A stretch of 64,000 nt of DNA from a virus. Of this stretch, positions 5,634 to 35,185 are shown piece after piece (the stretch's first letter is position 1; each line of letters opens with the position of its first letter). The stretch lies in IMG/VR virus record IMGVR_UViG_3300029955_000013, positions 19,901 to 83,900 of that record, one strand, 5' to 3'. The notes under the pieces are model-generated. The model was not told the origin of the DNA. It worked only from the letters and a program-made list of their open reading frames with translations, and did not search any database. The position numbers were made by a program, and so were the translations under genes.

Positions 5634-8288
5634 ATGGCAAATAAAAAGAGTAATTTCTTCAACAATATGAGTAATTTCTTCAAAAAGGTCGACGGCAGCG
5701 ATCTGATGAAGTTTACAGACAACGGCATTAAGACGTTCGATACGCCTATCTCAAGGAGAGAACTCGATAAGAAAAGGGAACTCCAGGTGTTCAGGCAGTA
5801 CCTCCAGTCGAAGAACTGGACCCAGAAGCACATAGAGTTGTATGACGAATACAGGAGGATGGACAACACGTTCCCTATAATAAATGCAGCTATAAGGTTG
5901 TACGGCCAAGAGGTATGTTTGACTGGGGATACGATAGTTACCACGCCTGGCGGTGACAAGACCATAAGGGAGTTATACAATACTAAGAAGGACTCATTCT
6001 ACGTGAAGTCATTTGACAAGATGTTCAACAGGGTAGAGTGGAATGAGGCGACCAACATACAGAACAATGGTGTCAAGCCGGTATTCAAGGTTACCGTCGC
6101 GAGGAACATAAGCTACGACTCCGCGGAGTGGGACAACAAGCTCGAGGCGTCGTTCAAGTGCACCGACAACCACGAGATAATGGTCGGGCCTGGGTTGTTC
6201 AAGCAACTCAAGGACCTTAGGGTGGGCGACAAGATATGGTCTATGTATTACTCTGTAGACCCCGCATGTAGTTGTAAGGTGGCAAACTTCAACACTACTG
6301 TGATAGAGAGTATAGAATCGGCCGGCGAGGAGGAAGTATTCGATCTCGTACACGTGGTCCCTAACCACCACTTTATGATTAAGTTGACTGATAGCTTCTA
6401 TGTTAGCGTGCATAACTGTACGAAGGACACGGATGGTAACGTTATCAAGATCATAACGGAGGACAAGAGGATAAAGAAACTGCTCGAAGACTGCTTCTAC
6501 AAAAACCTAAAAATAAATTCAACATCGTATTACCACGTAAGGAGCCTGCTGAAATTCGGCAACCACTATTCCTTCTTGGACACGAGGCAGGGTGTAGGTG
6601 TACTTGATCTAATCCATCTGCCACCAGAGTCGATAAGGATACAACTTCTTGACAATTCAGCGAGCCTCGATGATTTCAAGTACACTTGGTACGGTCATGG
6701 TCTTGAGTTCGAGCCTTGGGAGATAGTTCACTGGAAGAACATAGAGGATCTTGAAACTGAGCCGTACGGCCAGTCGATCTTGAGGTCTATAGTAGACACC
6801 TACAGAAGGATAATACTGATGAGGGAGGCTATGATAATATACAGGATTACTCGTGCACCACAGAGGCTCCTTTTCAAAATAGATACTACTGGTCTTGGTG
6901 CTGACGATGCGCTTAGGTATGCTGCAGAGTTGAAGAAGCAGATGATGAAGAGGCCGCTTGTTAATCCAATGACAGGTGAGCTTGACTACAAGCATAATCC
7001 GATCTCTATTATGGAGAACCTTTACATGCCAACTGTTGAGGGTGATACGTCTGACGTTAGGGTGCTCGAAGGTGCAACTAATATGGGCGACCTCGAGGAC
7101 TACAAGATAATAAAGGACGATTTGTTTGCCGGCCTATTGATACCTAAGAGTTACTTGACGTTTGAGGAGGATTTGTGCCTTAGGGAGAACACAAAGATAC
7201 TTACCACAGACGGCGTCCTAACTATAGGCGAGATTTCGAGGCTCCTGGAGAGCGACGAGCCGAAGAAGATATACTCTTTATCTTCAAACAAGTATGGCAT
7301 CATACTTAGCGGCAAGATACTTTGGTGTAAAAAGACAAAAGTCGTGGATATGCTTTATAGGATAACCATAAATGGTAAGCACATAGTTGAATCGACGGAT
7401 AACCACCCATTCATGCTCGAAAACTTGAGCTACAGGAGGGCGGATGAGCTTAAGATCGGTGATAGGTTAAAAAACATATTTGATGAGGACTATTACGTTT
7501 CAGACATAGAGGTTTTGAATCTCGATGTCGAAGAATACGTGTATGACCTTGAGGTTGATGAGTATCACAACTTTGCTCTTGAGAGTGGTGTATTTGTTCA
7601 CAATAGTAACAAAGCCGCCCTCGCGCAAGAGGATTTGCGTTTCGCTGGTGCGATTAGGCAGTATCAGGGCAACTACATAGAGGGGTTGCTGCACATAGCA
7701 CTTGTCCATCTACACATGAATGGCTGTTCGCAAGAGGAACTCGGGTCGTTCCAGATACAGATGAACATAAACTCAACCCTTGCCGAGAAGACTAAGAATG
7801 AACTGTTGCAGCAGAGAATAGACCTTGTTAAGAGTGCTTGGGATCCTTCTAATCCTGGTCTAAATGTTATGTCTTACACTGATAGTTTGAAGGAGTTGCT
7901 TCACTACACCGACGAGGAGATTGAGAAGACTTTCAAGGACCAGATGATAGAGAAAAAGATAAACTGGAGACTTTCACAGTTGAATGAGAATGGGTTCTAC
8001 GAGGAGCCTGCAAGCGAGCAAAGGAAAGCATCGCTGCTTGGTATGAGCAGTGAGAACAACGTGTTTTCAAACCTTAACTTCGAGGGTGTTGATAGTACAC
8101 CAGATATTAAGAGAATACTAACAGAGAAGCTCAATATGGAAATAAATGCGTTGCTGCACAAGGTGACTGCGTCCCCGTCCTTGAAGATGATAGAGTCTGT
8201 TATAAGCGAGAATTATAATTATACGAGCAAGCTTAGCAAGACGAGGAGGAACGCAATACGTGTCAAGAAGGAATTGGGTCTCGATTAA
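5634..8288 (+). CDS. T4 gp20-like portal protein with two mini-inteins
   Basis: YGQSIL, LMREAMIIYRITRAPQRLLFKID, DLFAGLLIPKSYL, EDLRFA portal motifs. Confidence 0.9.
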   Translation: MANKKSNFFNNMSNFFKKVDGSDLMKFTDNGIKTFDTPISRRELDKKRELQVFRQYLQSKNWTQKHIELYDEYRRMDNTFPIINAAIRLYGQEVCLTGDTIVTTPGGDKTIRELYNTKKDSFYVKSFDKMFNRVEWNEATNIQNNGVKPVFKVTVARNISYDSAEWDNKLEASFKCTDNHEIMVGPGLFKQLKDLRVGDKIWSMYYSVDPACSCKVANFNTTVIESIESAGEEEVFDLVHVVPNHHFMIKLTDSFYVSVHNCTKDTDGNVIKIITEDKRIKKLLEDCFYKNLKINSTSYYHVRSLLKFGNHYSFLDTRQGVGVLDLIHLPPESIRIQLLDNSASLDDFKYTWYGHGLEFEPWEIVHWKNIEDLETEPYGQSILRSIVDTYRRIILMREAMIIYRITRAPQRLLFKIDTTGLGADDALRYAAELKKQMMKRPLVNPMTGELDYKHNPISIMENLYMPTVEGDTSDVRVLEGATNMGDLEDYKIIKDDLFAGLLIPKSYLTFEEDLCLRENTKILTTDGVLTIGEISRLLESDEPKKIYSLSSNKYGIILSGKILWCKKTKVVDMLYRITINGKHIVESTDNHPFMLENLSYRRADELKIGDRLKNIFDEDYYVSDIEVLNLDVEEYVYDLEVDEYHNFALESGVFVHNSNKAALAQEDLRFAGAIRQYQGNYIEGLLHIALVHLHMNGCSQEELGSFQIQMNINSTLAEKTKNELLQQRIDLVKSAWDPSNPGLNVMSYTDSLKELLHYTDEEIEKTFKDQMIEKKINWRLSQLNENGFYEEPASEQRKASLLGMSSENNVFSNLNFEGVDSTPDIKRILTEKLNMEINALLHKVTASPSLKMIESVISENYNYTSKLSKTRRNAIRVKKELGLD
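5916..6416 (+). mobile_element. mini-intein 1 in portal (167 aa, no endonuclease)
   Basis: Starts CLTGDT, block B CTDNH, ends VHN followed by Cys. Confidence 0.9.
7176..7604 (+). mobile_element. mini-intein 2 in portal (143 aa, no endonuclease)
   Basis: Starts CLRENT, block B STDNHPF, VYDLEV, ends VHN followed by Ser. Confidence 0.9.
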
Positions 8289-17523: not shown

Positions 17524-20250
17524 TTAGAAGGCTGGCTGGAAATCATTGTAATCGCTAATCGGTTGAGCGATGTTTGTGTTTGCGTTTTCTTGCGCATAGT
17601 ATGCTGCCTTCTTCTGGCTGTTCAGCAGTGAATTGTAATCTTCTGTACCTATTGATTTCACGCAGCTTATTTCGGAAATAAATTTTCCATCTTCACTTAG
17701 TATGTGTTTAACCGTAGAGATCACATACTGTCCGTCGAATAATCCGGTCCCTTTCATAAAGGCAGGATCCCCAACACTCAGCCAAGGGTGGGCAATTGCT
17801 TTTATGTCAGCGTTTCTAAGAGTAGTTAAATAATAATTCTGTTCTGTTCTTTTCTGTTCGAACGTTATAGCGCCTGTAGTCGGCACATCCGGCGGGTTAA
17901 TCACGTCTTTGTTTATGTTGTTCGCCGCGTTCTGCGCGCCCTGTATCCCTGGACCAGTAGGAGTCGGATTGCCTTTTATTTTTATATCCTCCACAAGCGA
18001 CCCCATAAATCTGAATGAAAACACATCGTCCGGTATGACGAGCCTGTTGGTGCCGGTGACACCTATAAACTGTGTTTGTGAAGTGGATAATATGCTGCTT
18101 TGTTTTATAACGGATTCGTCTGTTAGCTGGACAGGGTCGTCCCATATAATAAAGAACCTTCCGTTAGGATTTGCCAGGTCAGAGTCGCCAGGCCCGCTTA
18201 CTGTCATGTGGTTGTTAGACAACACTGTTTGCACCCAAGTCAACAGAAGTGTGTCGCTGTTTTTGGCATTTATGTTAGTTGTCAAAAACTTCACATCATC
18301 GCCAGTTATATTTATGTGTATGTCGTGCGGCGGCGTTGTTATATTTTGGTGGTTCACCCTCCTAACCTGTAACCACGACGAATCATAAACAGCTGTCGGC
18401 CTTTGATTGTGAGCATAACTCGTATTGATGCCATTAGGATTAGTGTAGGCAGATGAATTTGGATTTATAGCGTTGTTAGAGTACTGACTATAGTTTTGGT
18501 CTTGCTTTAAAAATGCAAAGTTATCGTTTAGGAATGCACTTATAAAGTCGAGCAAGTTTGTAGTCAGACCGTTTTTATCATTTGCAAGCTTATGCATGTT
18601 CATTGCAAGATTTATAGGGCAGAAGCAGTTTGCAAAAGTATTATTGTAACGATAGTGGACGTCTGCGCTAAGCGATCCATCTTGTGAATTAACCGTTATG
18701 TCTGAAGACAGTATAGAAATCAATCCATAGTGTTCTATAGTCAATTGCCTATCTATCTGAAAGACGGCTATGTCGTCAACAGTTTTAATCGTATACCCGG
18801 GGTACCAAAGCGAGTTTATGGAATTTGACTGCGTAAGCGATATTGTATAATCGTTAGCCGCCGCCTTGTTCATTATGTCTTGCTTCAAGGTGCCATTGTC
18901 AAAAAGTATCCAGCCAGGGTGATTCCAGAACTTATAGGCAGAGCTGTTTATGTCCTTATCATCCTTCGGTATCCTTAGCTGCCATCCGTACCTGAAATAG
19001 AAATCGCCGGCCTGCTTCGGCGGGTTTATAAGGAAAGACCACGGTGAAGCTATGTCAAAGAATTTGTTTCCCTGTACGTCAAGAAGTTTTAGGGTTATTA
19101 AAGAGAGGCCCTTGCCGAGCTGCAAGCCGGCTTGTACCTCTATCGACTTAAAGCCAATAGCTCCAGCTTTAGATGTAGAGCCGACGTTTGCCGAAGGGCT
19201 CATGACCAAGCTGCCTAAAATTCTATAGCCGAACCCTCTGCCTGTTGACGTGCTCTTTAATGCCGTGTTCGCGGCGTTGTCCATGTATAACCCGGTAGAG
19301 TAATCTTGAAACGGGTCGAGCGTCATTAAATCTATGCCGCCGTTAGCCTGTATACCACTACTTCCGTCAGCGCCTATCAAAGAAGTCCTCATTGCATTAA
19401 ACCTGCTAATGTCATTTGTATTTAGATCTGTTTCAAGAGCACTCATCCCGGCGTTAGACGCCTGTGGCTGGTCTATGAAAAACACAGGTATCAACTCCAC
19501 AAACGGTATAAACGATTGCGGGTAATACCTTGACGCAAGATACATTATGAACTGCCTCAAACCAATCCAGTCAGAACTTTCGCCCTTATCGGACCGCGAG
19601 CCCCATGTAACATAAGAATTATCGTTCTCTATGTTACTAATGTTTGCATTGAGGTTTGCCAGTTCGTTTAACAACGACAAGTCGTTCGGTGGAGCAATCG
19701 AAGGCGCACTGTAAGGTTTTAAGAAATCTGAAGCATAGTTTACATTCGTTACATCCGATGCAGTGTTAGATAACGGTCCCAGCCCTTTATTCCTGTAATA
19801 GTTAGAACTTACACCACTCAAGTAGTCGGCAGTCTTCCCTGCCACATCTTCCCCAGGTGTGCCATTCAAGAAATAAGAATTCTTAGCGAGTGCGTTTACA
19901 TAACTTGTCGGATCTGTAACGGTAGAAAAATCCGAGTAATGGCGATTCAAGTATCTACCTATTTCCGCCCCTGAGTCAGTAACGTTCGGATAAGCGGCAT
20001 AATAACCGCCACCAGGCTGCGGCCGCCCTTGTGTTATACCGCCAGTCGTCTGACCCACATAGTTATAACCGAACACGTTGTTATCACTCGAGGTGGCCTC
20101 TATCGAATTCCAGTTCTGTCCGCTCTCTTGCTGCGATTGTGCCACGGCAAGGTTAGCGAGCAGGGTCGCCTGATCTGTTGTGTATGGTCCGAATGGCGGC
20201 GCTAATTGTGAATATACGCCATTGTATATCTGATTACCGTAGTCTGGCAT
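17524..20250 (-). CDS. baseplate hub-like protein with N-terminal glucosaminidase/lysozyme-like domain
   Basis: N-term QESG...NNVFG...YAAY; C-term GLFDGQYVISTVKH...F.SEI. Confidence 0.6.
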   Translation of the reverse strand: MPDYGNQIYNGVYSQLAPPFGPYTTDQATLLANLAVAQSQQESGQNWNSIEATSSDNNVFGYNYVGQTTGGITQGRPQPGGGYYAAYPNVTDSGAEIGRYLNRHYSDFSTVTDPTSYVNALAKNSYFLNGTPGEDVAGKTADYLSGVSSNYYRNKGLGPLSNTASDVTNVNYASDFLKPYSAPSIAPPNDLSLLNELANLNANISNIENDNSYVTWGSRSDKGESSDWIGLRQFIMYLASRYYPQSFIPFVELIPVFFIDQPQASNAGMSALETDLNTNDISRFNAMRTSLIGADGSSGIQANGGIDLMTLDPFQDYSTGLYMDNAANTALKSTSTGRGFGYRILGSLVMSPSANVGSTSKAGAIGFKSIEVQAGLQLGKGLSLITLKLLDVQGNKFFDIASPWSFLINPPKQAGDFYFRYGWQLRIPKDDKDINSSAYKFWNHPGWILFDNGTLKQDIMNKAAANDYTISLTQSNSINSLWYPGYTIKTVDDIAVFQIDRQLTIEHYGLISILSSDITVNSQDGSLSADVHYRYNNTFANCFCPINLAMNMHKLANDKNGLTTNLLDFISAFLNDNFAFLKQDQNYSQYSNNAINPNSSAYTNPNGINTSYAHNQRPTAVYDSSWLQVRRVNHQNITTPPHDIHINITGDDVKFLTTNINAKNSDTLLLTWVQTVLSNNHMTVSGPGDSDLANPNGRFFIIWDDPVQLTDESVIKQSSILSTSQTQFIGVTGTNRLVIPDDVFSFRFMGSLVEDIKIKGNPTPTGPGIQGAQNAANNINKDVINPPDVPTTGAITFEQKRTEQNYYLTTLRNADIKAIAHPWLSVGDPAFMKGTGLFDGQYVISTVKHILSEDGKFISEISCVKSIGTEDYNSLLNSQKKAAYYAQENANTNIAQPISDYNDFQPAF

Positions 20251-23484: not shown

Positions 23485-23899
23485 GGGGCCAAACAGGTTA
23501 TCGACTTAACGGTGTATGAGTCAGTAGTCATGCAGGGACAATTCGAATTGAGTTCCTCTAATAAATACATTCGATGCTATAAACGCAAAAAACAAAAGAA
23601 TCGCTGAAGGCGGCGCAATTCTAAGAAACATTTTCAGCAAGTCCGAAGCACCTTGTGCTATCGCAGCCTAATAAGCTTGCTGGAGAGTGCGCAAACTACT
23701 AAGTGTTTGCCAAGTGTGGTCGGGTAAATGTGGTTTCGCTTTTCTGCCATTGAGCGTAACTGCAGCACTTAGCAAAATGCTGTTATACCGAGATATAAAT
23801 GCAATCTGATATTCTCCTGGAAGAAACCAGCGATAAGCATGTGAGTTCCTACAGAACGTAAACGTTAAACACGAGGGTTCGACTCCCTCTGGCTCCACC
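23485..23899 (+). ncRNA. ssrA: transfer-messenger RNA
   Basis: 5' GGGGCCA...TCGAC; 3' T-arm GAGGGTTCGACTCCCTC then TGGCTCCACC; G3:U70; tag ORF 23585-23671 ending AIAA TAA TAA. Confidence 0.93.
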
Positions 23900-23938
23900 G
23901 AACCTAAATTTAATAGTATTTAAAGTGTAAAGTTTTGA

Positions 23939-24862
23939 ATGAATTTGAATTTAGGTAAACAGAAATTTTTTGTGATCTATCAGATTACCAATTTATTGAA
24001 TGGTAAGATTTATGTCGGTGCACATTGTACTTATGATGTGAATGATAAGTACATGGGTAGCTCCAAACACCTCAAAAAAGATATTAAAGAGTTAGGCCGA
24101 CAGAATTTTGCGAAGGAGATTTTACATGTCTTTGACAATAAAGAAGACATGATGGCAAAAGAGGCAGAAATTGTTGATCAAGAGTTCTGTCATCGAACTG
24201 ATACTTACAATCGTATGATTGGCGGGATAACAGAAATGTTATGGAATAATATGGTTTCGGTTCGAGATAAGGATGGAAACTATTTGAAAGTGTATAATGA
24301 TGATCCGCGTTATCTTTCCGGAGAATTTGTTGGTTGTACTAATGGTTTTGTTCCAGTAAAAGATGTTGAAGGAAATTTTTTACAAGTTGCTAAAGATGAC
24401 CCACGTTATTTGTCTGGTGAATTAGTTAGTTCTGCAAAAGGAATTTTTAACGCCAAGGATAAAGACGGTAATGTTTATCAAATCAGTAATAAAGATATAA
24501 GGTGGTTATCTGGAGAGTTGGTTGGATTAACTGCTGGTTTACATGGCAATTGTGCGTTCAGTGGTAAAAAACATTCAGAAGAAACAAAAGCCAAGATCGG
24601 AAAGAAAAATTCTTTAGCTCAAAGTGGAAGTGGTAATTCAATGTTTGGTAAAAAGCAAACAAAAGAATCTAACGATAAACGGCTTGATAAGATGGGTAAA
24701 AGTTTTTTTGTATTTGATACTGATGGCAATTTTATTTCGCAAGAATTTGGAATAAATCAATATGCGAATAAAAATAACTTAACTGCCACAAGCATTGTTC
24801 AGTGTTTGAAAGGTAAACAAATAAGTCATAAAGGTTTTAAGTTTTTATACGAAAATATTTGA
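23939..24862 (+). CDS. GIY-YIG homing endonuclease (Seg-like) with NUMOD3
   Basis: IYQITNLLNGKIYVG; GKKHSEETKAKIG; three DKDGN..DPRYLSGE-type repeats; more AT-rich than flanks. Confidence 0.85.
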   Translation: MNLNLGKQKFFVIYQITNLLNGKIYVGAHCTYDVNDKYMGSSKHLKKDIKELGRQNFAKEILHVFDNKEDMMAKEAEIVDQEFCHRTDTYNRMIGGITEMLWNNMVSVRDKDGNYLKVYNDDPRYLSGEFVGCTNGFVPVKDVEGNFLQVAKDDPRYLSGELVSSAKGIFNAKDKDGNVYQISNKDIRWLSGELVGLTAGLHGNCAFSGKKHSEETKAKIGKKNSLAQSGSGNSMFGKKQTKESNDKRLDKMGKSFFVFDTDGNFISQEFGINQYANKNNLTATSIVQCLKGKQISHKGFKFLYENI

Positions 24863-27270: not shown

Positions 27271-27305
27271 AAGCCTGGGAATAATCACCCAGGCTTTTTT
27301 ATTTT
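27271..27305 (+). terminator. attenuator terminator 1
   Basis: AAGCCTGGG/CCCAGGCTT plus U-tract; 5' arm can instead pair with TCCCAG (27229-27234). Confidence 0.85.
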
Positions 27306-27308
27306 AAC

Positions 27309-27384
27309 GGGAAAATCGCATAGTCAGGTCTATTGCCTCTGCCTTCCAAGCAGGTGTTCGTCGGTTCGAATCCGTCTTTTCCCT
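27309..27384 (+). tRNA. tRNA-Gly(TCC)
   Basis: GGGAAAA/TTTTCCC; loop CT-TCC-AA. Confidence 0.85.
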
Positions 27385-27441
27385 CACACGGGGCTCAGAT
27401 ACAAAGGTATCGTCTGCCCATGTTCTTTGACATATTATTAA

Positions 27442-27520
27442 GCCATGGTGGCACAGTGGTCGACTGCACCGGTCTTGTAAACCGGAATACAACACGTGGG
27501 TTCGAATCCCACCCATGGCT
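27442..27520 (+). tRNA. tRNA-Thr(TGT)
   Basis: GCCATGG/CCATGGC; CCGGT-CTTGTAA-ACCGG. Confidence 0.9.
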
Positions 27521-27526
27521 CATTAT

Positions 27527-27598
27527 CATCCTGTAGTCTAACGGTTAGGACGTCAGATTTTCACTCTGGAGATGGGGGTTCGATTCTCCCCAGGATGG
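27527..27598 (+). tRNA. tRNA-Glu(TTC)
   Basis: CATCCTG/CAGGATG; loop TT-TTC-AC. Confidence 0.9.
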
Positions 27599-27631
27599 CG
27601 ATTTTTAAAAGCTAATTTATAAATTCGTTTT

Positions 27632-28351
27632 ATGGAAAATCTTTATGACATTAACGGCCTCGTTTTCTGGAGCAAGAGGGAGATACAGTTTAGGAGGTAT
27701 GCGCAGGAATTTTTTTCGAGGGAGATAAGTGACCTGCTCATATTTGAGAACAAGAGCTGGTCTTTCCATGAGACTGAAGGCCCGCTGCTCATTCCTAAGT
27801 CCTTAATCAACGCCGATTATACCAACGAGGACATTTGGGTACAGGAAGTAATTGGCGACGATAACGAGCTCGTATTGAGGCCTGAGACTACTCCAAGCTC
27901 TTTCCGGTATGCGGTTTCTTTGATAAATAACTATGTTTCGCTCCCACCTATGGTTGTGGAGCAGACCGGCAAGTCATTCAGGCGGGAGCAGGATCAGGTC
28001 TCAAAGAACATGAGGCTCAAGGAATTCTACCAGCAGGAGTTCCAGTGCATTTATGCGGCGGACACCTTTAATGATTATCAGTCTAAGATATTGCCCGGCT
28101 TGGTGGCGGTTTTCCAAAAGCTGATTGGTAAGCCTTGCAGGATGGTAGATAGCGACAGGCTGCCTTCTTACAGCTTAAGGACTGTCGATGTGGAGGTGAA
28201 TAATGGTAACAAGTGGATGGAGGTTTGTTCTGTTTCAAAACGTACGGATTTTCCTATTCAAGTTAAGTTTGGTTCCAAGGAACCGAAGCCTATGCTGGTT
28301 CTCGAGATCGCGATAGGCCTTGACAGGTGCGTTTACAATTACTTTTTATAA
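27632..28351 (+). CDS. minimal class II aminoacyl-tRNA synthetase catalytic domain (GlyRS alpha2-like)
   Basis: LRPET, motif 2 GKSFRRE...EFYQQE, motif 3 EIAIGLDR; ends right after motif 3. Confidence 0.8.
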   Translation: MENLYDINGLVFWSKREIQFRRYAQEFFSREISDLLIFENKSWSFHETEGPLLIPKSLINADYTNEDIWVQEVIGDDNELVLRPETTPSSFRYAVSLINNYVSLPPMVVEQTGKSFRREQDQVSKNMRLKEFYQQEFQCIYAADTFNDYQSKILPGLVAVFQKLIGKPCRMVDSDRLPSYSLRTVDVEVNNGNKWMEVCSVSKRTDFPIQVKFGSKEPKPMLVLEIAIGLDRCVYNYFL

Positions 28352-28368
28352 TATTTTGCGGCCGAAAA

Positions 28369-28439
28369 GCATTTGTAGTTCAGTGATAGAACATGCCTCT
28401 CGTAAAGGTAAAACAGCAGTTTGATTCTGCTCTAATGCT
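28369..28439 (+). tRNA. tRNA-Thr(CGT), degenerate
   Basis: TGCCT-CTCGTAA-AGGTA; T-loop TTTGATT and D-loop lacking GG. Confidence 0.65.
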
Positions 28440-28496
28440 CATAAAGTTTTATTACTCTGGGGATTTCGATGTACATTTGCTTTGAAACATTATTCT

Positions 28497-29015
28497 ATGT
28501 ACAACATAAACAAGCGAGCGTTGGATATAAGGAAGATGTTTGGTGAGATTGCAGACATGAACAGTCCTTATGCTGGAACTCTGGATCTCGTTGTTAGGGA
28601 GGAAAAGATTTTCTGCATACTTGCCGAGTCGGTTAGCCAAACGCAGGCGAACTTCATGGTTCAAGAAATCTCAATGTCTTTCTTCCAGGACACGAAGAAC
28701 ATGTTGCTGTCGCAGGCCAAACTGATGCAGAATTTCATAGACACTTATTCTTCGTACGGTCCTGAGTTTAAGATAATAGAAGGGCAGCGAATGGCGTACC
28801 AGAATATGCTTAATTCAATAAATGGTTTGATCGAAGATGTTGACTCACATATAGAATTGTACACTCAATATATTGCGACCAACAACATAATAAAGAAAAG
28901 TATGAAGAAGACTATGAGGGAATGGAAGAAGAACGGTTTTCCTGATCGTTTTGCCGACTCGAGAGATATTCAGATAGTTCCAGACATAATGGGTAATGGT
29001 ACCACACCACCATAA
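28497..29015 (+). CDS. hypothetical protein
   Basis: Preceded by TACATTTG at 28472. Confidence 0.6.
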   Translation: MYNINKRALDIRKMFGEIADMNSPYAGTLDLVVREEKIFCILAESVSQTQANFMVQEISMSFFQDTKNMLLSQAKLMQNFIDTYSSYGPEFKIIEGQRMAYQNMLNSINGLIEDVDSHIELYTQYIATNNIIKKSMKKTMREWKKNGFPDRFADSRDIQIVPDIMGNGTTPP

Positions 29016-29023
29016 ATTAAAAT

Positions 29024-29095
29024 GCTCCGCTCTTCTAACGGTTAGGATGTGACCCTCTCACGGTTACGATACGGGTTCGATTCCCGTGCGGAGTA
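29024..29095 (+). tRNA. tRNA-Glu(CTC)
   Basis: GCTCCGC/GCGGAGT; loop CT-CTC-AC. Confidence 0.9.
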
Positions 29096-29110
29096 CAAAA
29101 AATAATTGAA

Positions 29111-29308
29111 ATGGGTTGGAAATGTACGCAGATTTTGACGAGACAGGAGGCGATAAATTTGATTGTTAGGTTGTCTGATGTGAGCATCTTGGAGAGCCTT
29201 TCTGACGACGATTTGTCAAACGTGGTTGACGGATTTTGTGGAGATAACATGGATATGCCTTATTATGGCTGCAACTTCATGGTCTCCGATGTTATAGATA
29301 ATGATTAA
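29111..29308 (+). CDS. hypothetical protein
   Basis: Small ORF between tRNAs. Confidence 0.55.
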   Translation: MGWKCTQILTRQEAINLIVRLSDVSILESLSDDDLSNVVDGFCGDNMDMPYYGCNFMVSDVIDND

Positions 29309-29312
29309 ATAA

Positions 29313-29384
29313 GCAGGAATAGCACAATGGCCAGTGTACGGGTTTGCCAAATCTGATATGGGAGTTCGATTCTCCCCTCCTGCT
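29313..29384 (+). tRNA. tRNA-Gly(GCC)
   Basis: GCAGGAA/CTCCTGC; loop TT-GCC-AA. Confidence 0.85.
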
Positions 29385-29465
29385 CTGTGTGTGCAAATAA
29401 AGTTCGAATCTTTACCTTATGTACCGGTTAGGGTAGGGTTAGTTCAATTGGTAGAACGGCACAGT
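29385..29465 (+). ncRNA. circularly permuted tRNA-like element (T-arm, closed acceptor stem, D-arm)
   Basis: TGTGC...AAAG-TTCGAAT-CTTT, ACCTTAT/GTAGGGT, GTTC-AATTGGTA-GAAC, GCACA. Confidence 0.65.
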
Positions 29466-29468
29466 GTC

Positions 29469-29541
29469 GGGCATGTAACTCAGCGGTTAGAGTAGTTCGC
29501 TCATAACGAAAAGGTCGTAGGTTCGATTCCTACCTCGCCCA
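29469..29541 (+). tRNA. tRNA with CAT anticodon, probably Ile2 (lysidine type)
   Basis: GGGC acceptor start, loop CT-CAT-AA, A73; two acceptor mismatches. Confidence 0.7.
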
Positions 29542-29561
29542 CCTTAAAAGCAAGAATACGA

Positions 29562-29771
29562 ATGGATAAAAATGAGTTAAAGAAGGTTATTTACAAGACA
29601 CAACCGATTGCGATTTTGCTTAATGTCAGGAAAGACGGATTGTCTTATGCTGCGAGTGTCGATAACAAGATAGTAAAGTTCTTTATACCATACGATGAGA
29701 TTGGTGAAGTGGTTTGGTTTGCAGAGATGCCGGCAAAGTTGCTGATAAGGTATTTGATAGATGTTGATTAA
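29562..29771 (+). CDS. hypothetical protein
   Basis: 69-aa ORF. Confidence 0.6.
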   Translation: MDKNELKKVIYKTQPIAILLNVRKDGLSYAASVDNKIVKFFIPYDEIGEVVWFAEMPAKLLIRYLIDVD

Positions 29772-29780
29772 ATATTTTTT

Positions 29781-30062
29781 ATGGAAGCCAAAGAGAAAAG
29801 ATTTCAGGGCCCTAATGGCGAGTTCGTACCGAGTAAACCGCTCAAGAAAGGCTACCTTTCTATAAAGCAAGCTGATGAAATATGTGAGTGGGTTTATTGT
29901 CACGACTCGTTTAGCGACGAAGAGAAGTTAAAAATGATACTTGGGGTGGAGACGCTGATCGGGGACATAATATCTGAGAACCTTGGAGACTTCAATGTGG
30001 CTTATGTTCCAACCTGGTCAACAAAGTTTAATGACAAAACGCCAATATCGTCTAACGGTTAG
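29781..30062 (+). CDS. hypothetical protein
   Basis: 3' end overlaps the next tRNA. Confidence 0.5.
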   Translation: MEAKEKRFQGPNGEFVPSKPLKKGYLSIKQADEICEWVYCHDSFSDEEKLKMILGVETLIGDIISENLGDFNVAYVPTWSTKFNDKTPISSNG

Positions 30063-30113
30063 GATTGCTCGTTTTCAGCGAGAAAGATGTCGGTTCGAAT
30101 CCGTCTATTGGTT
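30041..30113 (+). tRNA. tRNA-Glu(TTC), second copy
   Basis: GCCAATA/TATTGGT; CTCG-TTTTCAG-CGAG; U discriminator. Confidence 0.75.
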
Positions 30114-30198
30114 CAAAACTTGGAGGAATCTGGGTCTATCCTGAATTAATAAAGTGCGAGCAAGTGTACATATCTCGCCGCAATAAAGTAAGAGGGAT

Positions 30199-30270
30199 CG
30201 TGGATTAGCTCAGTGGTAGAGTAGCAGGCTGATGGACTGTTGGTCGGTGGTTCAAATCCACCATCCACAA
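30199..30270 (+). tRNA. atypical tRNA, GAT anticodon with C1:A72 mismatch
   Basis: CGTGGAT/ATCCACA; loop CT-GAT-GG; T-loop TTCAAAT. Confidence 0.7.
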
Positions 30271-30352
30271 CAAACCAGATAGGAATGTCTGGTGTGCTCT
30301 GGTAATGAGAGTGTGAATAAGCGCGAATAAAACACACTGGTAAGAAACAGAG

Positions 30353-30424
30353 TGTACTATAGGGTAGTGGTAGCCCGTCGGCATCAACAGCCGAAGATCT
30401 CAGGTTCGATTCCTGGTAGTGCAA
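30353..30424 (+). tRNA. atypical tRNA, CAA anticodon with short variable loop
   Basis: TGTACTA/TAGTGCA; TCGGC-ATCAACA-GCCGA. Confidence 0.7.
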
Positions 30425-30430
30425 CAATTT

Positions 30431-30769
30431 ATGGCTGAATATTATCATATAACTAATAGTAAAAACCTTAGTAATATCCTTACGGAAGGCCTGATACCAA
30501 ACAAGGGATATGGCATGAGCCGTAGGTTAATAAAGCATAACAAAAACTTTATTACGGATAATATTGCCTACATAATTCATAAGCAGATAGGCTTCAAAAG
30601 GTTTATTACAAAAGATTATGTAGTTCTTAATATCGAGCCATACGGTTTAAATATCAAAGAACACACTTATTGGGATCATATAAACCATAAACATGAAGTT
30701 GCAAAGCATGAGTTTGTTTGTTTTGACGTAATATTACCGAACAAAATTAGTGTAATGCAGAACAATTAA
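30431..30769 (+). CDS. ART-fold protein (Tpt1/KptA C-terminal-like)
   Basis: YHIT...L.NIL.EGL.P motif. Confidence 0.5.
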   Translation: MAEYYHITNSKNLSNILTEGLIPNKGYGMSRRLIKHNKNFITDNIAYIIHKQIGFKRFITKDYVVLNIEPYGLNIKEHTYWDHINHKHEVAKHEFVCFDVILPNKISVMQNN

Positions 30770-30778
30770 AATAATTTT

Positions 30779-31651
30779 ATGAACACACGTATTGCGCCTT
30801 CCCCAACAGGCTTTTTTCATCTGGGGACTGCACGGACAGCTTATCACAACTGGCTTGTGGCTCGCGCAACGGGTGGCTTGTTCACCCTGAGGATCGACGA
30901 CACCGACGACGACAGGAACGATGAGGGTCATGTACAGATGATCTACGACTGCATGGACTGGCTTGGTCTCGATTATGACGATACTTTCAGGCAGAGCGAC
31001 CGGAACAAGATTTATGTTGATTACGCTCAGTTCCTTTTGGACATTGATTATGCTACTGTTGCCGACAATGGTGCTATAATGTTTAGATTTCGTGATGAAG
31101 ATTTAATTCACTTTTTTAACGACACTATCGCCGGCAAGATAGAAACTAAGCAGGATGACATCGACAATCTTAGGAGCCTTGTTCTTATGAAGTCTGATGG
31201 TAACCCTACTTATAACTTCTGTTCCATTGTCGACGACTACCTAAGCAAGATAGACTGGATAATTCGTGGCGCCGATCACATAAAGAATACGATAAAACAG
31301 CTACATGTCATAGAGGCAGTTCAGTCTTTGGATAATCCGGTTAATTATTGGAAACCAAAGTTCACCCATGTGGGCCTTATACACGACATGAGCAACAAGA
31401 AGCTGTCCAAGAGGACCGGTGCGAAAAGCGTGCTCGACTACAAGAACGAAGGCGTAAAGCCGGGTGCTCTGCTCAACACGCTGCTTAGGATTGGCTGGGC
31501 GCCTACCGACCCGAACTTCGACTCGAAGCATAAGATCGTGACGAAGGACATGGCGGTGGACATGATACTCAAGGAAGGTAACTTCAGGTCTGCTCCCGGT
31601 AAGTTCGATCCGATGAAACTCGCATACTACAATAAAAAGCATAGTAATTAA
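30779..31651 (+). CDS. minimal glutamyl-tRNA synthetase catalytic domain (GluRS/GluQRS-like)
   Basis: TRIAPSPTG.HLGT, LRIDDTD, IRGADH, KLSKR; 290 aa, no anticodon-binding domain. Confidence 0.9.
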   Translation: MNTRIAPSPTGFFHLGTARTAYHNWLVARATGGLFTLRIDDTDDDRNDEGHVQMIYDCMDWLGLDYDDTFRQSDRNKIYVDYAQFLLDIDYATVADNGAIMFRFRDEDLIHFFNDTIAGKIETKQDDIDNLRSLVLMKSDGNPTYNFCSIVDDYLSKIDWIIRGADHIKNTIKQLHVIEAVQSLDNPVNYWKPKFTHVGLIHDMSNKKLSKRTGAKSVLDYKNEGVKPGALLNTLLRIGWAPTDPNFDSKHKIVTKDMAVDMILKEGNFRSAPGKFDPMKLAYYNKKHSN

Positions 31652-31679
31652 AAAAATGTCGCACATCAGTGCGACACTC

Positions 31680-31750
31680 GCCCGTATAATTTAATGGAAG
31701 ACTAATCCTTTGGTATGGGATATGCATCAGTTCGATTCTGATTATGGGCT
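31680..31750 (+). tRNA. tRNA-Thr(GGT)
   Basis: GCCCGTA/TATGGGC; ATCCT-TTGGTAT-GGGAT; weak D-arm. Confidence 0.75.
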
Positions 31751-31766
31751 CATAAAATTTCAATTA

Positions 31767-31937
31767 ATGCAGTTATCGTTTGGTATTGGTGATACGGTTT
31801 ACGCGAACGTTGGTGGCCAGGAGATGAAAATATTGGATGTCTCTGGCAACACGTATATTTGTCAGGTAATTGTTGACGGTAAGACGGAAAAGGTTAACTT
31901 CGAAAAGGGAACAGTACACAAGAAAATAAGGAAATAA
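31767..31937 (+). CDS. small YodC-like hypothetical protein
   Basis: F.IGD.V....GG..M pattern. Confidence 0.45.
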   Translation: MQLSFGIGDTVYANVGGQEMKILDVSGNTYICQVIVDGKTEKVNFEKGTVHKKIRK

Positions 31938-31991
31938 TTTATAAATGGAAAACATTCACGTCTCGTCTGGATAGCTCATCATTGATCAACA

Positions 31992-32195
31992 ATGATGACT
32001 ACAATTACAAGAACTCGATTTTGGAGAGTCGAGTGGATCCATAGAAATGGATACCGTGCACCACATTCGTTTGTGGAAGCAAAAAACAAGAAAGAGGCTG
32101 TGAAAATAGCCCAAGATAATTCCAGGTTTACTGATTTTCCCAAGACTTGGTCCTTTAATCTTGTCCGCTTAGTGGAGAAGGGAGAGGAAGAATAA
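31992..32195 (+). CDS. hypothetical protein
   Basis: VEAKNKKEAVKIA phage-type motif. Confidence 0.55.
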   Translation: MMTTITRTRFWRVEWIHRNGYRAPHSFVEAKNKKEAVKIAQDNSRFTDFPKTWSFNLVRLVEKGEEE

Positions 32196-32313
32196 ATGAC
32201 TTAAAACCGAACGGGTTTGTGGACAAGCAACAACCTGCTCCTGGCCAGCAATGGTATATGGAAAAACCACTTTAAATATGTTGTCGTGAAAGGGGGCGGT
32301 GACCCTTTCAAAT

Positions 32314-32384
32314 GCGGGAGTAGCACAATGGTAGTGCACGGGCTTGCCAAGTCTGATACGAGGGTTCGATTCCCTTCTCCCGCT
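32314..32384 (+). tRNA. tRNA-Gly(GCC), second copy
   Basis: GCGGGAG/CTCCCGC; loop TT-GCC-AA. Confidence 0.92.
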
Positions 32385-32419
32385 CAGGGTTAAAAAGAGT
32401 TTAAAATAAAAACAATTCT

Positions 32420-33973: not shown

Positions 33974-35185
33974 ATGGTTTCTAAATTCGCAATGGACGAC
34001 GCTTATGCTGTACAGGCAGACATTATAGAAGGTTGGTACACGAAGTACAAGTCCATGGATTTGCCTAACGGCTTCAAGAGGGTGTTGTATAGCTTTTCTA
34101 AAAGCGGCGTATCTGTTGCTCTCGGCAGGAATGAAAAATACGGGTATTTCATCTGCGCTTACGGTCAGGGCGAATATTCTTTCGTGATGACAGAAGCTGA
34201 TAGCGAGAACATTCCTGCCGAGGAAGTCTTTGACGTTAAAACTAAGGAAGGATTTATAAAGCATTTCGAGAGGTTTTGCAGGGAGTATAATTACTTGGAT
34301 TTCGAGGTAGTCGATAATGTAAGAGCCTATGATGACACGACGCTTTTCTGCCCGGCCGGGATGCAGAAGTATAAGAACGTGTTTAAGGCGGAGTGCCCAG
34401 AGGATGCTGACAAGGCCGTAAGGCGTCAGTACATGAAGCTAAATGAGAGTGTTATAGCAAATATTCAACCTTGCATAAGGATGAACGATTTGGATGATAT
34501 TGGTGACGGCACGCATTTGCTTTACTTCAACATGATGGGCCTTTTTGCATTTAGGACTCCTGGCTTTGGTGTTAGGCATGCTGTAAAATTTTGGCTTGAT
34601 TTCCTTGAGACGATCGGCTTGAAACCGGATCTTGTTACTGTCCACCCAGACAAGCAAGATTGGATATTTTATTACCAAGATGAAACGGTAGAGCAGAAAT
34701 ATGTAGACGATTTTCTTCAGTATAACGGGCCTGATTTCCTGCTCGATCCAGATTGCACGTGGACTGATGGCGAGATTGGAGGTTACTGTACGGAGTTCTA
34801 CATAAAGGACGTGGAGATAGGCAACATTGTGAATCCGCTTGGTAACTGCATAGATTGCGGCTTTGGCCTCGAGAGGATTCTGTATATACTCAATAATGAG
34901 TTGACTATCGCAACCGATTTGGACACGCTTAAGGAAACCATACTTAAGATATTAGACAGCGGTTACACGCCATCTAATCTCAAACAGGGCTATGTTTTAA
35001 GGAAGCTGTTGAGGGAGTTCGTCAAGAAGGGCGGCGAGATGGATCACGAGGTGTTTCTCGACGAGAAGGATAGGCAGCGAAAAATATATGACAGGTGGCT
35101 GCTGCTCAAGGATAAGCACAAGGACAAGAGCCCTGAATGGTGGTATGATACGCACGGGATTGATTTGAAAATGATAAACGGTTAA
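33974..35185 (+). CDS. minimal alanyl-tRNA synthetase (aminoacylation domain only) with N-terminal extension
   Basis: TLFCPAGMQ, QPCIRMND, H..YFNMMG.F, IDCGFGLERI, GYVLRKLLR, YDTHG. Confidence 0.88.
   Translation: MVSKFAMDDAYAVQADIIEGWYTKYKSMDLPNGFKRVLYSFSKSGVSVALGRNEKYGYFICAYGQGEYSFVMTEADSENIPAEEVFDVKTKEGFIKHFERFCREYNYLDFEVVDNVRAYDDTTLFCPAGMQKYKNVFKAECPEDADKAVRRQYMKLNESVIANIQPCIRMNDLDDIGDGTHLLYFNMMGLFAFRTPGFGVRHAVKFWLDFLETIGLKPDLVTVHPDKQDWIFYYQDETVEQKYVDDFLQYNGPDFLLDPDCTWTDGEIGGYCTEFYIKDVEIGNIVNPLGNCIDCGFGLERILYILNNELTIATDLDTLKETILKILDSGYTPSNLKQGYVLRKLLREFVKKGGEMDHEVFLDEKDRQRKIYDRWLLLKDKHKDKSPEWWYDTHGIDLKMING

Follow-up and report, generated by a model that had tools for sequence, protein, structure and literature searches.

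Synthetase cores without an anticodon-binding domain are known from a few settings. GluQRS (YadB) is a GluRS-derived core of about 300 amino acids (aa) that lacks this domain and glutamylates queuosine-34 of tRNA-Asp. Among class II enzymes, the amino-acid:carrier-protein ligases of Bradyrhizobium and Agrobacterium are reportedly SerRS-like cores that activate glycine or alanine. An Escherichia coli GluRS truncated at its C-terminus is reported to remain specific for tRNA-Glu, which it prefers over tRNA-Gln (Dubois 2009, as cited in PMC2777447). Huge phages carry up to 15 synthetases per genome, with synthetase genes beside tRNA arrays, and Al-Shayeb et al. 2020 (PMC7162821), in the passages searched, treat these enzymes as host-related and do not set apart core-only families devoid of anticodon domains. 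Here we describe two such core-only open reading frames (ORFs) from a large (jumbo-class) phage from peat soil. They lie in a window of 64,000 nucleotides (positions 19,901 to 83,900 of IMG/VR record IMGVR_UViG_3300029955_000013), which is part of an 83.9-kb viral contig with a CheckV completeness estimate of 41%:

27632-28351, + strand: GlyRS-like class IIa catalytic core, 239 aa, with motifs 1-3, without insertion domains and without the HGTP anticodon-binding domain
30779-31651, + strand: GluRS-like bacterial-type catalytic core, 290 aa, with HLGT and KLSKR, without the zinc-binding segment and without the anticodon-binding domain

The terms GlyRS-like family and GluRS-like family denote these two ORFs together with their homologues, the loci of which carry numbers with the prefix L.

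The GluRS-like protein has the size and the missing domain in common with GluQRS, but it represents a lineage of its own whose similarity to that enzyme is much weaker in both sequence and structure; it has no zinc segment, and its family is linked to tRNA-Glu, not tRNA-Asp. With the engineered truncation of E. coli GluRS it shares the fold, the motifs and the end point (N312), the stem-contact domain facing the D-arm being kept; unlike GltX and its engineered form, however, the phage cores constitute a natural free-standing gene family from which the 35-residue zinc-binding segment is also gone. The GlyRS-like protein resembles the dimeric GlyRS of Mycobacterium tuberculosis (8t5n) and Thermus thermophilus (1ati) in its class IIa fold, motifs 1-3 and aligned acidic pocket, and shares with them the signatures RPET, FRxE, SDRLPSYS..T.DIE and E..G.DR; at 239 aa against 440-690 aa, however, it lacks all insertion domains and the C-terminal HGTP domain. 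The carrier-protein ligases are likewise said to be truncated class II cores that activate small amino acids in Alphaproteobacteria, but they reportedly have another parent, being SerRS-like with zinc.

We propose that both proteins are minimalist synthetases that would charge tRNA-Glu and tRNA-Gly, respectively, by recognizing the acceptor stem and the D-arm, and we give this reading a probability of about 0.5. The case is stronger for the GluRS-like core, which probably charges tRNA-Glu, than for the GlyRS-like core, for which charging of tRNA-Gly is possible but tentative. Since phage-encoded synthetases are a known kind, the finding is best filed as the occurrence of such enzymes in conserved core-only families; our literature search returned no description of either family.

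The two catalytic cores

The ends of both ORFs were confirmed independently. The sequence was found again in many peat metagenome runs, and contigs from four other runs are identical to the window over 27300-32400 and bridge both stop codons, indicating that the ORF ends are real and that the truncations are not assembly artefacts. ARAGORN placed tRNA-Thr genes 18 nt past the stop codon of the GlyRS-like ORF and 29 nt past that of the GluRS-like ORF, and neither frame leaves space for another domain downstream. Thus, the statement of the first-pass annotation that two catalytic cores end where an anticodon-binding domain would begin holds for both ORFs. No Shine-Dalgarno-like purine run was seen upstream of either gene (27615-27631 and 30762-30778); the leaders are A+T-rich. 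This pattern may point to a host independent of Shine-Dalgarno pairing.

The 290-aa protein corresponds to the catalytic domain of a bacterial-type GluRS. It matched Pfam tRNA-synt_1c (PF00749) with 192 bits (cut-off, 23.4) and NCBIfam gltX_bact (TIGR00464) with 256.4 bits, the latter falling below the equivalog cut-off of 289.95, a shortfall that fits the missing C-terminal domain. HLGT at residues 14-17 and KLSKR at residues 208-212 align with H16 and K237-R241 of E. coli GluRS, to which the protein is 40% identical over 273 aligned residues. Its last residue aligns with N312 of the 471 residues of E. coli GluRS, the border between the catalytic and anticodon-binding domains, so that residues 313-471, the whole anticodon-binding domain, have no counterpart. 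The 35-residue cysteine-rich zinc segment (E. coli GluRS 98-132) is missing from all family members aligned. However, the solved GluRS of Methylacidiphilum (8jpv) aligns over this position in one stretch without a gap, so the compact insertion alone is no sign of lost function. The AlphaFold2 (AF2) model (predicted local distance difference test score, pLDDT, 93.8) gave a template modelling (TM) score of 0.86 to bacterial GluRS at 32-35% identity, and the residues that are invariant across the family are kept in the window protein.

Dimeric GlyRS is the parent of the 239-aa protein, a minimal class IIa core. Searched as a single sequence, this core matched Pfam tRNA-synt_2b with 34 bits, only just above the cut-off, and its best NCBIfam model was GlyRS (NF003211, 49 bits against an equivalog cut-off of 312). 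A profile built from 50 family members matched GlyRS structures with E values of 6.5e-21 (M. tuberculosis, 78 bits), 3e-16 (Nanoarchaeum equitans) and 2e-13 (T. thermophilus), whereas matches to ProRS, SerRS, HisRS and PylRS had E values of about 1e-6 or worse and at most 30 bits. GlyRS chains also head the Foldseek list obtained with the AF2 model (pLDDT, 95.2). The protein has motif 2 (FRRE) and motif 3 (GLDR), its C-terminus following only 7 residues after the latter, and neither a PF03129 (HGTP) match nor the insertion domains were found in it. R117 in motif 2 and R232 in motif 3 are nearly invariant in the 50 members, and P106, E119 and Q138 are also conserved. The motif-2 loop of the family has the length seen in GlyRS, and the GlyRS-specific stretch SDRLPSYS..T.DIE...W.E..S.S.RTDF is retained.

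Three glutamates, E85, E136 and E225, are invariant or nearly so in the GlyRS-like family. By offset from the 1b76/1ati alignment, E85 corresponds to T. thermophilus E188 and E136 to E239, while E225 aligns with the Glu that begins motif 3 ('IEP'/'LEL') in the GlyRS of M. tuberculosis and N. equitans. T. thermophilus E188, E239 and E359 reportedly form the acidic glycine pocket (Arnez et al. 1999). Together, the profile, the predicted fold and the pocket residues suggest that the glycine assignment, previously a guess from motifs, is reasonably supported.

Distribution of the two families

Both ORFs are members of large, mostly viral and length-conserved families, and neither is a remnant. In IMG/VR, the GluRS-like family was found at 67 loci and the GlyRS-like family at more than 80, with many of the contigs measuring 200-600 kb. 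The GluRS-like loci were recovered by an alignment-based scan of the viral contigs; a scan with the single sequence gave none. Both genes are present on at least nine contigs, at distances of more than 10 kb, and tblastn of the GlyRS-like protein against the 67 GluRS-like loci gave no hits, the two genes being usually separated by more than that distance. A search with the GluRS-like protein returned thousands of matches, the best 120 of which are all 280-365 aa long, share a common C-terminal end and are 44-75% identical. HMMER with the GlyRS-like ORF gave 247 clusters at 50% identity; among the best 150, nearly all are shorter than 290 aa and none is longer than 352 aa.

Members of the GlyRS-like family are encoded by cultured jumbo phages of Sinorhizobium (Phosso), Xanthomonas (XbC2), Brevundimonas and Caulobacter (CcrBL9, CcrSC and relatives), where they are annotated loosely or as hypothetical proteins. 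No GenBank phage matched the region in a megablast search. For both proteins, the best GenBank phage match was LR745206.1, a metagenomic genome of Al-Shayeb et al. 2020 (PMC7162821).

The GlyRS-like family also extends into bacterial chromosomes. A scan of species-representative genomes identified 120 relatives with a full-length identity of about 50% in many Rhizobium species and in Phenylobacterium, Devosia, Shinella, Labrys, Caulobacter and others (among loci L155-L234, for example, L194:5995-6744, L211:5995-6747, L181:5995-6744 and L179:6001-6756), which RefSeq names 'aminoacyl--tRNA ligase-related protein'. In Rhizobium, the surroundings are ordinary chromosome, with genes for an Mla-type transporter, for a GGDEF protein and for a D-Ala-D-Ala carboxypeptidase. 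Although the proteins of different genera are 67-78% identical, their genes have no neighbour in common. In a quick, unrooted maximum-likelihood tree, 13 chromosomal sequences form one short-branched clade (Shimodaira-Hasegawa-like approximate likelihood ratio test, SH-aLRT, 95) next to a viral contig, within a far more diverse set of viral and metagenomic sequences; the three remaining 'bacterial' rows of the tree are small contigs of metagenome-assembled genomes (MAGs), one of them identical to an IMG/VR viral contig. In the ESM Atlas, several clusters are 70-88% viral and one is proteobacterial. The simplest reading of the unrooted tree would be one transfer from phage to Alphaproteobacteria. 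These bacteria do not have a phage tRNA array, which shows that the function of the core is self-contained. The GluRS-like family was also sought in five alphaproteobacterial genomes, in which only full-length GluRS and GluQRS-like genes were found. The protein of L156, a contig in a gammaproteobacterial MAG, is identical to the GlyRS-like protein of the IMG/VR viral contig L086, and L156 is probably a phage contig put in the wrong bin.

tRNA genes and the wider array

ARAGORN identified 27 tRNA genes and one tmRNA in the window, nearly all on the + strand. The earlier description of both ORFs as lying amid tRNA-Gly and tRNA-Glu genes proved accurate, with three genes of each type around them:

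27309-27385, + strand: tRNA-Gly(UCC), with G1:C72 and U73
27527-27599, + strand: tRNA-Glu(UUC), 33 nt upstream of the GlyRS-like ORF, with D-arm GUCU/GGAC and a 4-nt variable loop (bacterial tRNA-Glu type)
29024-29096, + strand: tRNA-Glu(CUC)
29313-29385, + strand: tRNA-Gly(GCC), with G1:C72, C2:G71 and U73
30041-30114, + strand: tRNA-Glu(UUC), second copy
32314-32385, + strand: tRNA-Gly(GCC), with G1:C72, C2:G71, G3:C70 and U73

In a subset of its loci, the GluRS-like gene is strikingly associated with tRNA-Glu. In five of them (L010, L011, L016, L020 and L033), it is immediately preceded on the same strand by a tandem series of three or four tRNA-Glu(UUC/CUC) genes, and tRNA-Glu is found near the gene in two others (L012 and L013). 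Half of the tRNAs within 500 bp of GluRS-like genes (14 of 28) are tRNA-Glu, and most of these have the GUCU/GGAC D-arm and 4-nt variable loop. The D-arm and the short variable loop are major non-anticodon determinants for bacterial GluRS (PMC9976931). For the GlyRS-like gene, tRNA-Gly is the commonest tRNA neighbour, occurring at 10 of 36 tRNA-bearing loci compared with 0 of 20 for the GluRS-like gene (Fisher p = 0.01; p = 0.01-0.03 for the tRNA-Gly enrichment overall), although this link is looser than that between tRNA-Glu and the GluRS-like gene.

Both genes belong to one array of tRNA and synthetase genes that also contains the following:

33974-35185, + strand: AlaRS-like catalytic fragment, 403 aa, with about 90 extra N-terminal residues
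36976-38142, + strand: divergent class I ArgRS-like protein, 388 aa
42901-44037: RNA ligase gene, inside the tRNA array

A homologue of the AlaRS-like protein is encoded directly upstream of the GlyRS-like gene in L113, and one of the ArgRS-like protein directly downstream of the GluRS-like gene in L028. No tRNA-Ala or tRNA-Arg gene was found in the window. The ArgRS-like protein is very divergent and gave no sequence match in the PDB. In phage Phosso (L153), genes for an RNA ligase, CysRS and peptidyl-tRNA hydrolase occur near the GlyRS-like gene.

In one clade of huge phages, an amber-suppressor tRNA(CUA) with discriminator G73 adjoins the GlyRS-like gene, on the same strand except in L129:

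L077, L083, L084, L085, L089, L090, L092 and L093: tRNA(CUA) 53-1875 bp upstream of the GlyRS-like match (at about 10001)
L129: tRNA(CUA) 1752 bp downstream, on the opposite strand
L153:5594-5669, Sinorhizobium phage Phosso: tRNA(CUA), with the GlyRS-like core just downstream

The loci bearing this tRNA showed no clear TAG-specific rise in coding density, and the tRNAs nearest to tRNA(CUA) in the comparison are of mixed types (Arg, Lys, Gly and Phe).

Some features of the window do not concern the cores. The summed depth of peat metagenome contigs is 10-100 times that of the flanks at 29352-29693 (tRNA-Met) and 32259-32400 (the last tRNA-Gly), two bins in which many contigs have loose ends; this probably reflects similar tRNA sequences in other organisms of the samples. 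A T4-like portal gene at 5634-8288 is split by an intein, and at 23485-24862 a GIY-YIG/NUMOD homing-endonuclease-like gene comes immediately after a tmRNA for which a long tag is predicted.

Mechanism, rival explanations and significance

In the mechanism proposed, both genes would encode active minimalist synthetases that the large phage co-expresses with the tRNA array it encodes. The 290-aa protein, with a Rossmann fold, a shortened connective insertion and a stem-contact fold, would glutamylate the 3' end of tRNA-Glu(UUC/CUC), choosing it by the acceptor stem, the Glu-specific D-arm and the short variable loop, and not by the anticodon. The 239-aa protein would activate glycine in its conserved acidic pocket and pass it to tRNA-Gly through contacts at the acceptor end only. 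Adenylation activity and amino-acid specificity are thus predictions, as are the acceptors; we infer indifference to the anticodon from the architecture of the two proteins.

Several points weigh against this mechanism. The insertion domains of GlyRS help to hold the acceptor stem, and all are missing in the phage core. The chromosomal clade of the GlyRS-like family, which stands alone, lowers the confidence in tRNA-Gly as the acceptor and resembles other repurposed synthetase paralogues. No tRNA gene lies within 2.5 kb at about two-thirds of the GluRS-like and about half of the GlyRS-like loci, and the enrichment of tRNA-Glu near GluRS-like compared with GlyRS-like loci is non-significant (p = 0.05-0.15). 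With only about 41% of the genome on the contig, partner proteins may be encoded elsewhere. Furthermore, the anticodon is a strong identity element for cellular GluRS and GlyRS (PMC9976931), and given this dependence, the cores may be poor or unspecific enzymes.

Four other explanations were considered, two of which concern what the ORFs are. That they are decaying or inactive fragments of full-length, host-derived synthetase genes might be suggested by scores below the NCBIfam equivalog cut-offs for both proteins, but this is hardly credible given hundreds of relatives of equal length and with equal ends, which keep invariant catalytic residues at 30-60% identity, together with confident and complete predicted folds and the identical sequence in independent metagenome contigs. 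The architecture shared with GluQRS, a GluRS core of about 290-300 aa without an anticodon domain, had led the first-pass annotation to compare the GluRS-like protein with this enzyme, and the protein could in principle modify tRNA-Asp in the same way. This is very improbable, however, and the analogy did not survive comparison: the GluQRS model TIGR03838 scored 136.4 bits against a cut-off of 276.7, as opposed to 256 bits with gltX_bact; identity was 27% to E. coli GluQRS and 40% to E. coli GluRS; and the TM-score was 0.73 to GluQRS and 0.86 to GluRS. In addition, the zinc segment found in both E. coli proteins is missing, tRNA-Asp is not among the tRNA genes of the window, and the tRNA genes adjoining family members are tRNA-Glu arrays. 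Since the truncated E. coli GluRS is reported to stay specific for tRNA-Glu (Dubois 2009, as cited in PMC2777447), a core alone need not turn to queuosine modification.

The other two explanations accept catalytic cores and concern what they work with. One or both, mainly the GlyRS-like core, might pass the activated amino acid to a protein, a carrier, a small molecule or a nucleic-acid base. Truncated paralogues such as GluQRS, EpmA/PoxA and the amino-acid:carrier-protein ligases set precedents, and both the stand-alone genes in alphaproteobacterial chromosomes, conserved across genera in varying surroundings, and the only moderate association with tRNA-Gly would agree with such a role. We nevertheless consider it unlikely. 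The motif-2 loop, which in class II synthetases contacts the tRNA acceptor end, has the length and the arginine of GlyRS; both phage genes lie repeatedly inside tRNA arrays, with tandem tRNA-Glu genes directly upstream of the GluRS-like gene in at least five loci; and no carrier-protein gene or conserved partner adjoins either gene in phages or bacteria. When the GlyRS-like core was compared with the carrier-protein ligases, no chain of such a ligase was among its PDB profile matches and no carrier-protein gene was adjacent. In favour of a non-tRNA role, Mom of phage Mu shows that phages use glycyl chemistry for DNA modification (PMC13219725), though via ordinary Gly-tRNA. Alternatively, the cores could be real synthetases that need a tRNA-binding partner in trans, either a phage protein encoded elsewhere or a host protein. 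This is consistent with the incomplete contig, with the many ORFs of the array to which no function is assigned, and with the title of Dubois 2009, according to which the free distal domain stimulates a truncated E. coli GluRS. The first-pass annotation had allowed for missing domains encoded elsewhere, but neither PF19269 (the GluRS anticodon domain) nor PF03129 (the class IIa domain) had a match on the 83.9-kb contig. Four related huge-phage genomes, 93-100% complete and carrying both families, had no PF19269 match anywhere, and PF03129 occurred in them only within open frames of 423 and 500 aa. Across the 67 GluRS-like and 80 GlyRS-like loci, no neighbouring gene is conserved. The lack of anticodon-domain matches and of a conserved neighbour makes a dedicated cis-encoded partner unlikely, and dependence on any partner in trans is distinctly improbable.

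Two ORFs of the window were considered as trans partners and rejected: one of 177 aa (28482-29015) and one of 116 aa (30419-30769), neither of which matches Pfam or PHROG or has a homologue in the related loci. Of the PF03129-bearing frames in the four related genomes, the one inspected, a 488-aa ORF at 8078-9544 of L121 (from a 608-kb phage), is a ThrRS with an anticodon domain. Its gene precedes that of the GlyRS-like core by two genes, and its match to the thrS model is confined to the C-terminal part (positions 247-551 of 565).

Charging by the acceptor stem and D-arm could have further consequences for the phage, which we regard as rather unlikely in this extended form. Reading only this 'operational code', the cores would let the phage keep charging tRNAs that are hypomodified, altered in the anticodon or damaged by defence systems, and they may bypass attacks on host GluRS or Gly-tRNA; in the Phosso clade, the GlyRS-like core may charge tRNA(CUA), the two forming a self-contained suppressor pair.

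Free-standing cores that charge without reading the anticodon have been postulated as the ancestors of synthetases (the 'operational RNA code' idea). If the activities proposed here are true, natural and abundant examples would make this idea testable in living systems, and the two families could show how a tRNA is chosen when its anticodon is not read. Anticodon-independent pairs of synthetase and tRNA would also be raw material for genetic-code expansion. Should the GlyRS-like core prove to act on an acceptor other than tRNA, it would add a new case to the repurposed synthetase paralogues. Genetic and biochemical work could begin at once, since cultured phages of Caulobacter, Brevundimonas, Xanthomonas and Sinorhizobium, as well as Rhizobium chromosomes, encode family members. 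For the phages themselves, the activity, if true, would show how very small genes let jumbo phages service the tRNA sets they encode.

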